NCBI GenBank assembly: GCA_965203325.1
Contig: OZ241875.1
Location: 768,001 to 832,000 of the forward strand
Source of the DNA: a bacterium
Lineage (GTDB): Bacteria > UBA8248
Length of the DNA: 64,000 bases
Reading direction: 5' to 3'
Shown here: positions 3,832 to 15,767 of the stretch, piece by piece
How the letters are laid out: each line of letters starts with the position of its first letter
How positions within the stretch are numbered: position 1 is the stretch's first letter
Made by a program: the position numbers and the translations under genes
The notes under the pieces: generated by a model
The model's database searches: none
Seen by the model: the letters and a program-made list of their open reading frames with translations, nothing else
Told to the model about the DNA's origin: nothing

Positions 3832-3906
3832 TCCGGCGTAGCTCAACGGCAGAGCAATCGGCTGTTAACCGATGGGTTGTAGGTTCGAATCCTACCGCCG
3901 GAGCCA
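3832..3906 (+). tRNA. tRNA-Asn (GTT)
   Basis: Cloverleaf: acceptor TCCGGCG/CGCCGGA, D arm GCTC/GAGC, anticodon arm ATCGG-CTGTTAA-CCGAT, T arm GTAGG-TTCGAAT-CCTAC, discriminator G, encoded CCA. Confidence 0.97.
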
Positions 3907-3930: not shown

Positions 3931-4281
3931 TCAGGCCTCATCCGCCTTCGAGACGAAATCCGAGAGCGCCTCTTTCACGAGGGCGTTCATGCTCCGGCCG
4001 CGCAAGGCCGCCATACGTGCGAGTTTCTCATGCAGTTCCGCCCCCGGACGCACGTTGAAAGACCCGCTGTATGGCTTGTTCGGCTCGATTCCTTCCGCCT
4101 CGCACGTTTCCAGATAATCGTTCACCGAATCCTGAAACGATTTCTTGAGTTCCCTGGCGGTTTCGGCTTCGTATGTAATCAAATCCTGCACGTGGAGCAC
4201 CTTGCCGTGCAAGGTTTCGCTTTCCTCGTCATATTCAATGGATCCCTGATAATTCTTGTACCTCAAAACCGCTCCGATCAT
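3931..4281 (-). CDS. hicB: HicB family antitoxin
   Basis: YKNYQGSIEYD...LHGKV...DLITYE...SVNDYL...KPYSGSFNVR plus C-terminal RHH (SMNALV). Confidence 0.9.
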   Translation of the reverse strand: MIGAVLRYKNYQGSIEYDEESETLHGKVLHVQDLITYEAETARELKKSFQDSVNDYLETCEAEGIEPNKPYSGSFNVRPGAELHEKLARMAALRGRSMNALVKEALSDFVSKADEA

Positions 4282-4344
4282 CTTTGGCCCCTTTCCATCC
4301 TCGTGAGCAAATCTGATTCCCCGCCATTCCCCTTCAGGTGTATT

Positions 4345-4599
4345 TCACAACAAACCACCTTCCTCCAACTTCTTTCTTACCTCGCGTATGACATATGGCT
4401 TCAACTTTCCTTCGGCATGGGGCTGGTGAAGGAAAATCCGGGGAGCCAACGAATGAATGAACCTTCGCCGTGAGCCACCCATTCTTCCTCCCGTTGACTG
4501 CCGATAACCCAATCCCTCCAATAGCTGAACCAATTCGTTCCATGTAAAATTTTTTGGATTCTTCCTGAATTTATCCAGCAGCTTCTCGTGTTTGCTCAT
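4345..4599 (-). CDS. hicA: HicA family mRNA interferase toxin
   Basis: 84 aa; FTWNELVQLL..LGY, GGSRRRF, LHQPH, LKPY motifs; upstream of hicB. Confidence 0.9.
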   Translation of the reverse strand: MSKHEKLLDKFRKNPKNFTWNELVQLLEGLGYRQSTGGRMGGSRRRFIHSLAPRIFLHQPHAEGKLKPYVIREVRKKLEEGGLL

Positions 4600-4638
4600 C
4601 GGTCTCTTGTCTAAATATCACTGGCTCAAACCATTATA

Positions 4639-4703
4639 GCAACTGTCAATTAGTTGCATTATATAGGGCAAACCCCCAGAAATGCAACTATTTTTTCGTT
4701 GCA
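4639..4703 (-). promoter_or_regulatory. hicAB promoter with two palindromic operators
   Basis: Two GCAAC-N9-GTTGCA palindromes (4639-4658, 4684-4703) overlapping a minus-strand TTGCAT-N18-TATAAT. Confidence 0.65.
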
Positions 4704-4811
4704 ATAAGAAGTCGGGGTATAGATTATGAAATGATCACGGGCATGGGAGGGAAAAGACTTCCCAAGGAGTGGCATTCTTGATGGCAACTGCCCTTACCCG
4801 GCAATACCCCC

Positions 4812-6161
4812 TCAAACGCCGCTCTTCGCTTTTTCGAGGGCCGCGACGTTCATCGGGTGCGCGTTGCGGCGGCGCTTGTCGACGCGGATGCGCAGGCGCG
4901 CGGCCTCGGCGGGACTCAAACCGGCTTCCCGCAGTTCGCTCCGGCTGAACCCCTTGCCGGGCCGCCAGGCTCTGCGCGCATCTCTCACGAGAGGGAGGAG
5001 CCCATTTTCCGGGAAAGGGGGTTCCGAGGCTTCCTCCGGTTCTTCCAACGGCAAGTCGGCAGCCGCGTCGACGGCCTCCGGCTCGCTCTCCCGAGGCGTT
5101 TCCGGCTCGGAAACCGTCGCCTCCGCCACGCTTTCCTGAGAGGTTTCCGGCTCAGGGGCAGCCGCCTCCACGGCGTTTTCAACTACGTCCGTGACGTCCT
5201 CATGTTCCGAAACGACACCAAGCGTAGCGTCCGGCCCATCTTCATGAGGGACTGCAAGATCGGATGCAGTCTCCTCTACGACCTTCTCCTCGACAACCGA
5301 AACGGCTTCGTCCTGCTCTTCATCCGAATCGGCCGCATCCGGCGAATCAGCCGGTTCCGGCACGGCCAGGGCATCGAAATCATCGCCATATCCTTCAAGC
5401 GGCTCAGGCTCGCGAGATGGCACGGCCTCATCCACCGAACCACCCGGGATCGACGCCGCCGGAGGTTCGTCATCCTCCGCCGCGTCGGCATCGTCAATAA
5501 TACGCACCCCGCTATCTTCAGGAATCTCCGCCGCCACGGGCGCATATCCCCCCACGACGCTTTCGGCTGCGTCGGGGGCTTCCTCAAACTCAAGAGCGGC
5601 ATCGCCGATAGCTTCCGACTCGCTTTCTACAAAAACCTCAGGCTCTGAGTCCGGCGGCTCCCCGGCCTTTTCGGAAACGCGCGCGGCGGTCTCCTCATCC
5701 TCCCGAGGCGAATCGGCCGGTTCCGGCACGGCCAGGGCCTCGAAACCATCGCCATATCCTGCAAGCGGCTCGGACCCGCGAGGCATCCCGGCCTCACCCG
5801 GCGGTTCATCCGAGACCGGCGCCGCCAATGATTCCGGGGCGGGGGCATGGCCGCTTTCTGGCGCGTCCACCACGTTCGCCGGTTCCGCGCCTTGCGGTTC
5901 ATCGGAAGCCAGTAACTCCAACTCGAGACCGTATCCGCTTTCTGGCGCGTCCGTTTCGCCCGCCGCATCCGGGTTCGGCGTTTCACCGGAAGCCAACAAC
6001 TCGAAGTGAGAGCCGTAGCCGCTTTGCTCCGCCTCGTTCTCAGAATACGGAACGCCCGGTTCGATGGCCGTGGGAGGCGGCAAATCAAACCCCTCTTCTT
6101 CCGGCTTTGGAGGTGCAGATTCCTTGCGACGCCCGATGCGGCTCAAAAATTTTTTCTTCAT
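4812..6161 (-). CDS. Acidic low-complexity repeat protein with C-terminal ribosomal protein eL13 (L13e)-like domain
   Basis: 449-aa ORF, E/D/P/A-rich with internal repeats; C-terminus LLPLVRDARRAWRPGKGFSRSELREAGLSPAEAARLRIRVDKRRRNAHPMNVAALEK follows the eL13 pattern R.G[RK]GF[ST]..EL..AG[LI]....A..L.I.VD.RR......NV..L. Confidence 0.8.
   Translation of the reverse strand: MKKKFLSRIGRRKESAPPKPEEEGFDLPPPTAIEPGVPYSENEAEQSGYGSHFELLASGETPNPDAAGETDAPESGYGLELELLASDEPQGAEPANVVDAPESGHAPAPESLAAPVSDEPPGEAGMPRGSEPLAGYGDGFEALAVPEPADSPREDEETAARVSEKAGEPPDSEPEVFVESESEAIGDAALEFEEAPDAAESVVGGYAPVAAEIPEDSGVRIIDDADAAEDDEPPAASIPGGSVDEAVPSREPEPLEGYGDDFDALAVPEPADSPDAADSDEEQDEAVSVVEEKVVEETASDLAVPHEDGPDATLGVVSEHEDVTDVVENAVEAAAPEPETSQESVAEATVSEPETPRESEPEAVDAAADLPLEEPEEASEPPFPENGLLPLVRDARRAWRPGKGFSRSELREAGLSPAEAARLRIRVDKRRRNAHPMNVAALEKAKSGV
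5341..5771. repeat. Intragenic direct repeats in the eL13-domain protein
   Basis: 65-bp copies at 5341-5405 and 5707-5771 with 4 mismatches (EPL.GYGD.F.ALAVPEPADSP); also an 18-bp exact repeat at 5851-5868 and 5935-5952 (DAPESG). Confidence 0.9.
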
Positions 6162-6287: not shown

Positions 6288-6387
6288 GCCGCGCAAAAAC
6301 GAGCGCGTTGACGGGTATTCTCAATTATCCAAAACACGCGAAACCGGGAAGGCCGAGTGGGTGTCAATCGTTCAAACCGGATACGGG

Positions 6388-6705
6388 TCACCCGTCCTTT
6401 TGATGGATGGTTTGCAAGTCTCGATCGAGATCTTCGAGGTCATATTGGACCGGCGTTTTTCGGCTGCGCGCATAGTCCATCATCTCCCACAGGGAAACTC
6501 CCGCATCGCGCGCCGCCCGCGCAAGAGTGACCTTTCCATCCCCGTAGAGCCGGAAGTAATGCTCCAGCTTCCACTGCCGGACCGCGTTCGACAGCAGCCT
6601 TCGCAGGGTGGTCGAACGGTCGGACTGCTCCACATTCTCGATGAGTTCCAGTTCGCGAACCAGTTCCAGGGGGAGCCTCGCGCCTACCATGCGCTCTTTT
6701 TTCAT
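6388..6705 (-). CDS. UPF0175-family antitoxin-like protein (RHH + HTH)
   Basis: VGARLP...DRSTTLRRLL N-terminus; LYGDGKVTLARAARDAGVSLWEMM...Y.LEDLDRDL C-terminus; start may be 6705 or 6723. Confidence 0.75.
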   Translation of the reverse strand: MKKERMVGARLPLELVRELELIENVEQSDRSTTLRRLLSNAVRQWKLEHYFRLYGDGKVTLARAARDAGVSLWEMMDYARSRKTPVQYDLEDLDRDLQTIHQKDG

Positions 6706-6741
6706 ACGATGCAATCCACACAATCCAGGGGTTGTGAGTAA

Positions 6742-8376
6742 TTATTCATCCCAACTATCCACTGATGCCTCATGCTTGATCATTTCCATGACATTGATAC
6801 CAGAAGACATGACCTCGAATCCACTAGATGTGCGACCGCTCTCAAAAATCTGCTGCCAGAAGTCATTATTTTGCTTTCCGCCGAACACCGAAGAGGATAG
6901 ATCCTTGTTGACCCACAGTGGGAGGCGCTTCAAAGCATCAACAAAATTCTCGATATTCTCCCAACAAGTATCCGGGATCGTATATTGAAACAATTTACCT
7001 TCGGGTAGCGGCTTACCTGTAGCGATGAAATAATGCTGAATAATCTGGCTCACGTATCTCAACCAATTGTAAACAATCTCTTCTTTGGCCATTCGGAACG
7101 CGCGGAGGTGAGGCTCCGGGATGTCTTCTCCTTTTTGGATATTGTGTTCAATCCGTCGAGTGCCAAGTGAAGGCTCAAATTGTCCGATGAAAATCTTCTC
7201 GGCAATGACATTCATCAATCGGACTATCTGTTCAATTTCGAGATACCGTGGATTCGCCCCTTCTTCGAGCTTGAAATTAAACGGGGTAGTCAACAAATCA
7301 GCATGGATAAAAAACGAGTAGAAGGTTTTTTCGACTGTACTGTAACTCAGAGGCTTTTGGGTGCCCCGACCACCATAGTCAATATAGTCGCGTAGCTTGT
7401 TGTCGGGATGTCGTGTGATGCTGTTTCGAATCCAATCAATGACATACCTCTTCATTTCCCTGCTTTCGCCTTTGAAATGATTGACGAGATCCCTTTCCGT
7501 GAAACTCTCGTAATCTTCGTCTTTCCCACAATCACTTCGATAACGCTTCATTCTATCTTCCAACAGGGAACTACCGAGACTTCTCTGCACCGATTTGTCG
7601 AATGCGACTTGGCGCAGCGTCGTGCCTGCGTGAGTGTTCGCCGTCAGTAAGATATCGGTATCCGGATCGATGAACACTCGAACCGGTAGGCAACGAGTCC
7701 CCAAAAGTATTTGTGCAGCTGCTTTGTGTTGGCCGTCGAATATCTGAACTTTGGTCAGGTTGCCATTAGAAGTATCGAGCCATCCCAATGCGATATGAAG
7801 TTGTGGCATCTGCTTATGGAATTCCTCCACAATCTTCCTGAGATTCGCCCCAATTGGCCGTGGATTTATGTGGTTATCATGATGCAAGTACTCAATGGGG
7901 AGGTTGATGAATGTATAACGAAACCCTGACAGATCATCTTTATAGATCGGAAATGTAAGAATGTCGTTCTGGCCGAGATCAGAGAACGCCGTTTTCAATT
8001 TCTCTTCGTTAACAGTGACCGAAAGTTCATATTTAGCGCCACCATTCTCGCTAAGGACATCACCGAGGTTGGGAGAACGGTCTTCCGATATCGACTCCGA
8101 TATCCTATCAAAGGAAGCGAGGATCCTCGCTACACGAAGGTCACTGGCTTGTTTCGTCCGATTACACGAATCATGGGTGACGGCGAAGTTGCTCGGATCG
8201 TCTTTTCCGCCGACTTTGGTCGGCTCTACATGGTCGATATCAATATGGTTGCCATGGACATCGGGGTCAATCGCCTTCCCACAGATGAAACAATTGTTAT
8301 TTTGTGTTTTCAGAAGACGATTAATGAGTTCCCGGCGTTCCTCAACCGACAGTCTGTTGAGATAAGGTGATGGCAT
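6742..8376 (-). CDS. HNH endonuclease fused to a DGQH(R)/ParB-Srx-like domain
   Basis: CFIC...DIDHVEP...GG.D...N....HDSCN.TK at the N-terminus; INPRPI...IFDGQHKAAA...LPVRVF centrally; GGAGG RBS; visibly AT-richer than flanks. Confidence 0.8.
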   Translation of the reverse strand: MPSPYLNRLSVEERRELINRLLKTQNNNCFICGKAIDPDVHGNHIDIDHVEPTKVGGKDDPSNFAVTHDSCNRTKQASDLRVARILASFDRISESISEDRSPNLGDVLSENGGAKYELSVTVNEEKLKTAFSDLGQNDILTFPIYKDDLSGFRYTFINLPIEYLHHDNHINPRPIGANLRKIVEEFHKQMPQLHIALGWLDTSNGNLTKVQIFDGQHKAAAQILLGTRCLPVRVFIDPDTDILLTANTHAGTTLRQVAFDKSVQRSLGSSLLEDRMKRYRSDCGKDEDYESFTERDLVNHFKGESREMKRYVIDWIRNSITRHPDNKLRDYIDYGGRGTQKPLSYSTVEKTFYSFFIHADLLTTPFNFKLEEGANPRYLEIEQIVRLMNVIAEKIFIGQFEPSLGTRRIEHNIQKGEDIPEPHLRAFRMAKEEIVYNWLRYVSQIIQHYFIATGKPLPEGKLFQYTIPDTCWENIENFVDALKRLPLWVNKDLSSSVFGGKQNNDFWQQIFESGRTSSGFEVMSSGINVMEMIKHEASVDSWDE

Positions 8377-8454
8377 CGCAGTCCTCCATTAGACCTCGTG
8401 CGAGTGGAACATAATTACGGACCGCAGAAGCTACCTGTCAAGCCCTACAATCCG

Positions 8455-9237
8455 TCAGCCAATGAACTCGGCCTCACCACTTACATCACCCGCCAGTTCC
8501 TCGGCGGTCCGGATGATGAGTTCGATGTCCGCATCCCGCGAGAGCCGGTGGCCGCCGTCCTTGACGAGCATGAGTCTCACGTCATCGCTTTTGAGGACCT
8601 CGGTCAGTTTCAAGGAAACCTCCCAGGAAATCGTTTCATCGAGCATCCCGTGTATAAGGCGAACCGGGCAGTTCAAATCGATCTCACCCCGCAGGAGCAG
8701 GTGCTTATCCCCCTCATCGAGGAGCTTTTTGGTGAAGGGATACGGCTCCCCCCAGATGTTGGGCGCGTGCATGACGTATCCCCGCTCGTCGAGTTCACGC
8801 TCCATCTCTTCGGTGAGCCTGTGCTTCTTGAAGCCATCCGTAAAATCAGGTCCCGACGCCACGCCCACCAGCCCTTTCACGCGTTCGGGCCGGGCCAGGG
8901 CGGTGAGCAGCATCATCCACGCGCCCATGCTGGAACCCACGAGCACTTGGGGTCCCCGGGCGACCTCGTCCAGGATCGCCAGCGCGTCCTCCGCCCACTC
9001 GCCGATGGTTCCCTCCTCGAATTTTCCCGAGGATTCCCCGTGTCCGCCGTAGTCGAAGCGAACGTAGGCGCGCCCCACCTTCCGGCAATGGGCTTCGAGC
9101 GCGCTCGCCTTCGTCCCGCTCATGTCCGAGCGGAAACCGCCCAGGAACATCAGGCCGGGCGATTCGCCCTCCAGACGGAACCAGGCGAGCGAATTCCCGT
9201 TTTCTCTGTGAAGAAAACTCGATCCGGAGTCGGACAT
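8455..9237 (-). CDS. Alpha/beta hydrolase (ABHD10-like)
   Basis: GGFRSDM.GTKA, RFDYGGHGES, GSSMG nucleophile elbow, KDGGHRLS. Confidence 0.9.
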   Translation of the reverse strand: MSDSGSSFLHRENGNSLAWFRLEGESPGLMFLGGFRSDMSGTKASALEAHCRKVGRAYVRFDYGGHGESSGKFEEGTIGEWAEDALAILDEVARGPQVLVGSSMGAWMMLLTALARPERVKGLVGVASGPDFTDGFKKHRLTEEMERELDERGYVMHAPNIWGEPYPFTKKLLDEGDKHLLLRGEIDLNCPVRLIHGMLDETISWEVSLKLTEVLKSDDVRLMLVKDGGHRLSRDADIELIIRTAEELAGDVSGEAEFIG

Positions 9238-15035: not shown

Positions 15036-15767
15036 ATGTGCGGACGCTTCACCCTCATCGAACCCATCCCCTGGCTCGCGGAAATTTTAGGCCTTGAAAA
15101 CCCGGAAAGCGTGGGCGAGCTTCCGCCCCGCTACAACGTCTCGCCGGGCACGGAGGTCGTGATCGTCCGCACGAAAGAATCGACTGATACGAACGCGCGC
15201 GAACTCGCCCTCGCCCGCTGGGGCCTGGTGCCCTTCTGGGCGAAGGACCCCGATTTCGGGACCAGAACGATAAACGCACGCTCGGAAACCGCTGCAGAGA
15301 AACCCGCCTTCCGCGCCGCATTCCGCTACAGGCGATGCCTCATCCCCGCGGACGGCTTTTACGAGTGGGCGGGGAGCGGGAGAAAAAAACAGCCTTGGTT
15401 CATTCATCTGGCAGACAGGAAACCCTTCGCTTTCGCGGGTCTTTGGGAGAGTTGGACGGGGGCGGACGGGAGCGTTCTCGAGACCTGCACGATCCTCACG
15501 ACGGGGGCGAACGAGAAACTGGCCGAACTGCACCACCGGATGCCGGTCATCCTGCCCGAGGCATCTTATGCGGACTGGCTGAACCCGCGCGAGAACCGCG
15601 CGAAGGTTCTCCAGCCGTTTCTCAAGCCCTATCCCTCCGACGCCTTTTCGTATTACCCGGTGAGCGAGCGGGTGAACAGCCCGAGAAACGACGATGCGGC
15701 GTGTACCGAAAGACACGAAGAGGAGAAGGAGCCGCCACAGCTTCAGGGCTCGCTCTTCGGGGATTGA
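15036..15767 (+). CDS. SOS response-associated peptidase (SRAP/YedK/HMCES family)
   Basis: MCGRF N-terminus, INARSET, DGFYEW, HHRMPVIL; C-terminal QGSLF clamp-binding-like motif. Confidence 0.95.
   Translation: MCGRFTLIEPIPWLAEILGLENPESVGELPPRYNVSPGTEVVIVRTKESTDTNARELALARWGLVPFWAKDPDFGTRTINARSETAAEKPAFRAAFRYRRCLIPADGFYEWAGSGRKKQPWFIHLADRKPFAFAGLWESWTGADGSVLETCTILTTGANEKLAELHHRMPVILPEASYADWLNPRENRAKVLQPFLKPYPSDAFSYYPVSERVNSPRNDDAACTERHEEEKEPPQLQGSLFGD

Follow-up and report, generated by a model that had tools for sequence, protein, structure and literature searches.

The distribution of the ribosomal protein eL13 (L13e) is given as archaea and eukaryotes only in the available text of two reports (PMC3353972; bioRxiv 10.1101/2021.01.31.429008). 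In the Druantia type III system of Escherichia coli, the protein DruH precedes DruE and carries a small C-terminal domain that forms part of the single-stranded DNA (ssDNA) site and aids ssDNA binding, as described in the available portion of a preprint (bioRxiv 10.64898/2026.05.12.722862). Here we describe a bacterial gene that resembles the first of these in the sequence and predicted fold of its C-terminus and, through a family of longer proteins, the second in position only. The gene is an open reading frame (ORF) of 449 codons plus a stop, on the minus strand at 4812..6161 of a 64,000-nucleotide stretch (the window; contig OZ241875.1 of assembly GCA_965203325.1, positions 768,001 to 832,000) from a bacterium of lineage UBA8248, and its product is an acidic protein with a net charge of -81. 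Our results show, from sequence and modelled fold, that its C-terminal module is genuinely homologous to the core of eL13, and that this fold occurs in bacteria in two non-ribosomal settings, namely at the ends of DruE-paired proteins and in a disordered polyacidic protein encoded in an island. We propose, with a probability of about 0.45, that the ORF encodes a real, conserved, accessory, island-borne and non-ribosomal protein, in which the eL13 core would serve as a nucleic-acid anchor in phage-host or mobile-element conflict.

Compared with the archaeal eL13 of Pyrobaculum calidifontis (PDB chain 9e6q_AH), the module has the same core fold and signature, with the beta-hairpin and the patterns WR.G[KR]GFS..EL..AG[LI] and DKRRR..H..N. 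Unlike eL13, it is not a stand-alone small basic protein: it makes up the last ~60 residues behind 385 acidic, predicted disordered residues, and lacks both the Lys-rich tail of the archaeal form and, by comparison with the eukaryotic one, 60 residues at the N-terminus and 80 at the C-terminus. The gene further differs from an eL13 orthologue in being an accessory bacterial island gene, which scores under the equivalog cut-off and was absent by search from five of 22 congeners. The nearest module outside the acidic family to which the ORF belongs is that of P0107 (59% identity, 61 bits), one of a family of long proteins that we refer to by P0107 and P0129. Many of these proteins also share with the ORF a short basic or hydrophobic start and a disordered linker that is acidic or rich in Ser/Thr/Pro. 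Unlike the acidic family, the long family has a DruE partner and a globular, partly Ig-like core of ~450 residues. As for E. coli DruH, neither the long family nor the ORF is matched by any of the DruH models in PADLOC, although distant kinship may exist all the same.

The eL13 core of the acidic protein

The module (aa 386-449, net charge +10) lies at 4815..5006 on the minus strand, and the C-terminal residues of the ORF read ...ENGLLPLVRDARRAWRPGKGFSRSELREAGLSPAEAARLRIRVDKRRRNAHPMNVAALEKAKSGV. The span 4812-5003, in which a first-pass annotation made from the letters had recognised an eL13 domain resembling the short archaeal form, corresponds to the stop codon and aa 387-449. Both the homology and the archaeal likeness were borne out, as was the statement that the host DNA is bacterial and the gene outside any ribosomal operon. 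In Pfam, where the annotation had proposed to look, the L13e model PF01294 (180 positions, cut-off 24.9 bits) matched the whole ORF with 34.1 bits (E 3.2e-8; aa 397-435 on profile positions 60-98) and the C-terminal 72-aa piece with 38.4 bits. The NCBIfam model of short archaeal L13e, NF008914 (83 positions), matched the whole ORF with 51.6 bits (E 5e-14; profile positions 24-73) and the piece with 56.2 bits, both under its equivalog cut-off of 96 bits. Since the archaeal model gives the higher score and only that short part of the Pfam profile is matched, the module appears closer to archaeal than to eukaryotic eL13. A phmmer search of the PDB sequences gave 72 distinct sequences at E ≤ 10; the best 60 include 58 eL13/L13 chains, headed by 9e6q_AH (E 8.5e-8), and the remaining two are IcmE/DotG repeat proteins without an aligned stretch. 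The module residues invariant across the acidic family are W399, R400, G402-K403-G404-F405-S406, E409, L410, D428, K429, R430-R432 and N433.

Repeat proteins were also met outside this search. In P0184 (817 aa), as in the PDB IcmE/DotG proteins, decapeptide or pentapeptide repeats reach a whole-protein PF01294 score (33.5 bits) without any aligned stretch; such proteins are a false-positive mode of the Pfam L13e model, from which the match of the ORF differs in kind.

The predicted structure agrees with the sequence matches. An AlphaFold2 model of the last 72 residues, aligned for this purpose with 46 short stand-alone, archaeal-type homologues, has a predicted local distance difference test (pLDDT) score of 84.5 and folds as a beta-hairpin followed by three helices. 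When this model was compared with 48,161 PDB representatives by VIA-align, 13 chains were found at Z ≥ 2, and all eight at Z ≥ 5 are eL13. The superposition on eL13 suggested in the annotation is close: the top match, 9e6q_AH, gives Z 9.5 and a root mean square deviation (rmsd) of 1.4 Å over 64 residues at 41% identity, and the next fold after eL13 follows at Z 2.5. Similarly, the best 50 Foldseek matches in the PDB are all ribosome or pre-60S entries, mostly chain L or LL; the entry titles name no chain, and we read these chains as eL13 because VIA-align and the sequence search agree on it. As only eL13 chains match strongly, the module is not a common non-ribosomal bacterial fold. In the model of the full-length ORF, 339 of the 449 residues have a pLDDT below 50 and aa 32-389 are without secondary structure, so that only the module folds. 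An ESM Atlas search of the ORF returned no usable match.

Across 13 gene copies (78 pairs), the ratio of nonsynonymous to synonymous substitution rates (dN/dS) of the module has a median of 0.23 and a maximum of 0.51, and the module is thus under purifying selection. The GC content of the gene (0.64) and that at third codon positions of the module (0.79) are host-like, which makes the gene a long-standing resident. A Shine-Dalgarno-like word, AGAGGG, stands 10 nt before the ATG; promoter and terminator scans gave nothing above shuffles. The annotation had asked whether the contig might be chimeric at this point, and we compared the window with contigs of other sequencing runs (X2, X3, X4 and X6). 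The junction between module and linker (~5003) is bridged by X3 record 12 (4073-5060), X2 record 1 (4369-5014) and X4 record 20 (4987-5405). These independent contigs, together with the 97 protein clusters that repeat the architecture (see below), refute an assembly chimera or a chance match, and profile, sequence and fold evidence agree in the same sense.

The acidic family, the long family and their shared slot

An exhaustive phmmer search with the module through 1.84 billion representatives gave 287 matches at E ≤ 1e-3. The acidic family, for which the query was residues 380-449 of the ORF, comprises 97 protein clusters of 249-541 aa with the layout of the ORF, that is, a short basic N-terminus, a disordered polyacidic linker with one to four GYGxxFExL-type motifs, and the eL13 core; a precomputed PF01294 match accompanies 95 of them. 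The best matches outside this family are long proteins (580-1170 aa) that end in the module and have no further Pfam domain, and the next are short stand-alone proteins. In an alignment of the short forms all 47 rows (46 short proteins and the 72-aa piece from the window) are recognised by the archaeal L13e model (lowest E 1.2e-35). The annotation had viewed the module as acquired across domains; a singular capture by this gene is not what we find, as the module is present in two bacterial families, the acidic one and the larger, DruE-linked one (560-1170 aa).

The distribution of the gene was followed in the window genome, a single contig of 4.39 Mb that holds one copy, and by profile searches of 40 relatives (22 congeners and 18 genomes outside the genus), with 14 control genomes also searched with PF01294. 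Matches to PF01294 were found in 18 of the 22 congeners, in none of the 18 other relatives and in none of the controls. In 17 of these 18 congeners the long-family profile matches the module only, as it does in the window genome (model positions 715-780), so the fusion, whose presence in relatives the annotation had wished to see examined, occurs as a core-less acidic gene in 17 of 22 congeners. The eighteenth, G006, encodes a full long-family protein, as does G008, and profile searches found neither gene in G001, G015 and G019. The five congeners lacking the acidic gene are 94-100% complete, four of them 98-100%, and they are more distant: the alpha/beta-hydrolase bordering the slot described below is 64-70% identical to that of the window, as against 73-96% in carriers. 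Relatives were not found in the viral_contigs, phage records or plasmids collections. Runs labelled 'sponge metagenome' contain close relatives of the window stretch, and contigs of X3 and X6 are 95-99% alike to it. A match in Albirhodobacter (L014) was rejected, being an ethanolamine ammonia-lyase light-chain-like ORF that, judged from sequence, looks like a chance similarity.

The core of P0129 is common to 60 of 75 long or mid-length proteins. A search with this core gave 377 proteins at E ≤ 1e-10, and among the best 120 the eL13 module lies within 25 aa of the C-terminus in 107. A gene for a DruE-like helicase follows directly downstream of the long-family gene in four of six metagenome loci and in congeners G006 and G008, the gene order of Druantia-like anti-phage systems; these neighbours are recognised by PADLOC DruE1, with E-values of 1e-147 and 1e-150 and, where the copy is truncated, 7e-65, and they carry the Pfam domains DEAD, Helicase_C and MZB. 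Of the two remaining metagenome loci, one is too short to judge and the second has no adjacent DruE among the ORFs scanned. A PADLOC scan (E ≤ 0.01) of P0107, P0109, P0111 and P0129 assigned no family, and for the P0129 core the ESM Atlas returned only scores of at most 0.85 with TM of at most 0.29.

Not all long-family proteins end in the eL13 module. In G008 the long-family protein (L039:9742-12132, plus strand), whose gene precedes the DruE-like helicase at L039:12335-16498, ends in Pfam RNA_pol_Rpb6, an omega-like domain (aa 715-769, 32.9 bits, cut-off 26). A third C-terminal module (...QLLEKVVEMQ...YYRGFLG...YFAVRTSN...) occupies the last ~90 residues of ten of the 120 listed proteins (P0318, P0324, P0325, P0328, P0331, P0342, P0345, P0348, P0350 and P0356), and no Pfam family was found for it in the five of these ten carriers that were scanned. 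Since the G008 protein ends in Rpb6 instead of the eL13 module, the C-terminus of the long family seems, as judged from these sequences, to be a place where small modules from information-processing machines are exchanged.

How do the modules of the two families relate? In an unrooted tree of 151 rows made with a quick method, where three of the 148 inner branches are starred and 106 drawn open, the short forms make one cluster (approximate likelihood ratio test, aLRT, 81) and the acidic family another (aLRT 93), which stands among the long-family modules and outside the short-form cluster.

The two families also share a genomic address. In 10 congener or metagenome-assembled genome (MAG) loci the acidic gene lies between an alpha/beta-hydrolase gene (8455..9237 in the window, minus strand), kept in all congeners examined, and a tRNA-Asn (GTT) gene (3832..3906, plus strand), with optional toxin-antitoxin genes on either side. 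The slot between these borders is variable. In the window it holds genes for an HNH protein, a UPF0175 protein, the acidic protein and HicAB, so that the neighbours of the ORF are UPF0175/HNH and HicAB and it is not directly upstream of a DruE helicase. In G019 the slot is empty (about 190 bp, L042:1207-1394), which defines the island borders; in G008 it holds an HNH gene alone, 76% identical to that of the window; and in G001 it holds NupC-like, M48-like and HicB genes. In G006, NupC-like and M48-like genes are followed by a long-family gene and a DruE-like helicase gene adjoining the tRNA. The contig of G015 shows no tRNA within 12 kb of the hydrolase gene.

What the acidic protein may do

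The product of the ORF is probably not a ribosomal protein, and because it lies in a variable island its gene is probably tied to anti-virus defence. A non-ribosomal role is favoured because the gene is accessory and island-borne and because its module is nearest to that of a defence-linked family found in the same slot of a congener. We read the module as a nucleic-acid anchor by comparison with E. coli DruH, whose C-terminal domain takes part in the ssDNA site. The eL13 core would thus be a small binding anchor for ssDNA or structured RNA, and the polyanionic linker would mask this basic module, by autoinhibition or as a nucleic-acid mimic; alternatively, the linker may recruit partners through its repeated motifs. 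A charged disordered linker attached to a small binding module is also the general layout of PopZ and of HMGB1 with its acidic tail, neither of which is homologous to the ORF; in such a layout an acidic tail may mask the basic domain of its own protein. The acidic protein, derived from a defence gene or sharing its module with one, would then have its role not in translation but in conflicts with phages or mobile elements. Both nucleic-acid binding by the module and a defence role are inferred.

Several of our observations weigh against this proposal. The island location of the acidic gene is guilt by association only, and relative to the tRNA the acidic gene has the opposite strand to the long gene of G006. 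Related genomes are not independent, so that the count of 17 in 22 congeners reflects one subclade of a sponge-associated genus. The module tree is poorly resolved, with 72 columns, no root and most forks open. When the two families were compared by hhalign only the C-terminal module aligned (66 columns, probability 99.4), and a hidden Markov model of the N-terminal segment of the acidic family found nothing better than E 0.1 among the long-family proteins. Because only the module aligns, a derivation of the acidic family from the long family by loss of the core would be conjectural. Neither PADLOC (E ≤ 0.01) nor PHROGs profiles gave a family for the ORF. Finally, the window genome has no DruE orthologue (best 24.6 bits), and any defence role would therefore be independent of Druantia.

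Could the acidic protein work on the ribosome instead? As a ribosome-associated factor, or a lineage-specific extra ribosomal protein, it would dock its eL13 core on 23S rRNA, and its acidic tail would stand out from the 50S subunit, perhaps recruiting factors in the manner of a stalk. Such a role would suit a module that keeps the whole archaeal eL13 core including the basic DKRRR, superposes on ribosome-bound eL13 as closely as described above and is under purifying selection, and the acidic motifs may loosely recall the acidic peptides in which the stalk proteins of archaea and eukaryotes end. We nevertheless consider this role unlikely: the gene was not found in five of the 22 congeners, nearly complete as four of these are; it is cargo of a variable island, with toxin-antitoxin and HNH genes, whose site is empty in G019; extra copies lie beside transposases in some genomes; the NF008914 score stays under the equivalog cut-off; and defence-linked proteins end in the same module. 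The same distribution and context lend nothing to two of the functions suggested in the annotation, a ribosome-binding factor and an effector. An effector of a sponge symbiont, eukaryote-like in that its eL13 core or acidic motifs would disturb ribosome assembly, trafficking or signalling in the host, is in our opinion even harder to credit. It could draw on the close relatives of the window stretch in sponge metagenome runs, on an ankyrin-repeat gene near one extra copy and on the limitation of the family to one genus among the genomes searched; however, we saw neither a signal peptide nor a secretion-system context around any copy, the module is closer to the short archaeal form and to bacterial modules than to eukaryotic eL13, and the sister (long) family is cytoplasmic defence machinery.

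That the ORF is a decaying remnant of a defence gene, without present function, is very improbable. The slot does hold a complete Druantia-like pair in G006, linker length varies widely, and an extra copy in G010 is split into two frames; but the frame is intact in the 13 copies examined, the module shows the low dN/dS reported above, and the N-terminal segment and the motifs are kept across genomes at a synonymous divergence (dS) of about 0.6. In a broader scheme, which we also hold to be unlikely, the eL13 core would serve bacterial immunity as a portable module for docking or as bait. The sensors in the position of DruH would end in interchangeable small modules of the core information machinery, the eL13-like tail (107 of the 120 listed), the Rpb6/omega-like one of G008 and the third one (10 of the 120 listed). 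Through these tails the sensor would be held at ribosomes, at RNA polymerase or at the nucleic acids of either; alternatively, the tails would imitate such targets and serve as decoys for phage factors. In that scheme the acidic family would be a core-less offshoot that sponge symbionts keep as a free-standing regulator or decoy, for instance as a polyanionic mimic of nucleic acid that sits on the same target.

The label 'ribosomal protein L13e' that annotation pipelines put on acidic-family genes is misleading. Three Nitrospinae MAG proteins of the family and one from a Rhodospirillaceae MAG already bear this name at NCBI, so the annotation was right to call the system undescribed only in part: the L13e domain itself and these database labels are already known, and in the literature that we searched, on L13e/eL13 in bacteria, on sponges and their symbionts and on Druantia, no paper on a bacterial eL13 module was found. 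The text of PMC12458937, supplements aside, does not mention L13, ribosomal protein, Rpb6, omega or DruH. What this work adds is an acidic and disordered architecture confined to one genus, the tRNA-Asn slot that the two families share, the length variation driven by repeats and the C-terminal swap site of the long family. If the module does bind nucleic acid or the ribosome, it would offer a handle on how Druantia-like systems sense infection, and would be an example from nature of a ribosomal-protein fold put to a different use.

Linker repeats, island cargo and extra copies

Upstream of the module the ORF consists of two further parts, both on the minus strand. The N-terminal conserved segment (aa 1-30, 6072..6161) is basic; its sequence KKKFLSRIGRRK leads into an acidic stretch and an (I/L)PPP motif in which P28 and P30 are invariant, a motif type found in 72 of the 97 members of the acidic family. 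A 15-member alignment of the family shows the kept N-terminal KKNFLSRIARRK...(I/L)PPP, motifs of the EEYGLDLELL type and the near-invariant module. The dN/dS of the N-terminal segment (0.38) is unreliable, as some sequences are one residue out of register. An N-terminal amphipathic membrane helix was considered and rejected, as shuffles reached at least the observed hydrophobic moment in fractions of 0.34 and 0.59.

The polyacidic linker (aa 31-385, 5007..6071) is Pro/Ala-rich, carries a net charge of -94 and is predicted to be disordered. Four motifs of the type GYGxx[FL][ED]xL start in the ORF at residues 48, 76, 135 and 257: GYGSHFELL (aa 48-56, 5994..6020), GYGLELELL (aa 76-84, 5910..5936; family consensus EEYGLDLELL), GYGDGFEAL (aa 135-143, 5733..5759), whose Y136, G137, E141 and L143 do not vary among the 15 aligned sequences, and GYGDDFDAL (aa 257-265, 5367..5393), 122 aa or 366 nt after the third. 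They may bear some resemblance to stalk-protein tails, dileucine sorting signals, EVH1 ligands or other sorting or actin-regulator motifs of eukaryotes. The third and fourth motifs fall within a pair of direct repeats of 120 nt each (5341-5460 and 5707-5826), 82% identical and 366 nt apart. In other samples this 366-nt unit is either skipped (joint 5380->5747, X6) or duplicated (contigs of X4 and X6 go back 366 nt), and linker length therefore changes by recombination between its repeats.

The island also varies on the hydrolase side of the ORF. A 2.1-kb block (6362..8488, minus strand) with the UPF0175 and HNH genes is missing from contigs of three other runs (joint 6361->8489 in X2, X4 and X6). 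Inside it lie an antitoxin-like UPF0175 gene (6388-6723, minus strand) and the gene for a 544-aa HNH protein (6742-8376, minus strand), with a foreign GC content of 0.46 against 0.61 for the window. This protein has an N-terminal HNH nuclease domain followed by a remainder of ~460 aa, and gave weak matches to PtuB-type HNH proteins in PADLOC. On the tRNA side are the HicB antitoxin (3931-4281, GC 0.54) and the HicA toxin (4345-4599, GC 0.47), both on the minus strand and both optional island cargo of low GC.

Extra copies of the acidic gene were seen in three congeners. Those of G013 (L024) and G020 (L025) lie beside an ABC-3 metal transporter gene and Mutator, IS110 and DDE_3 transposases, and the L025 copy also has an ankyrin-repeat gene nearby. 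The copy of G010 (L026:7040-8162) is split into a frame of 300 aa and a frame of 98 aa with the module; it may be a pseudogene created by a frameshift, or else the module may stand alone here. Genes for an autotransporter and a TbpB-like protein are among the neighbours of this copy. Elsewhere in the window, a complete SOS-response-associated peptidase (SRAP) gene (15036-15767, plus strand), downstream of ilvD-like and 2-hydroxyacid dehydrogenase genes, looks ordinary.

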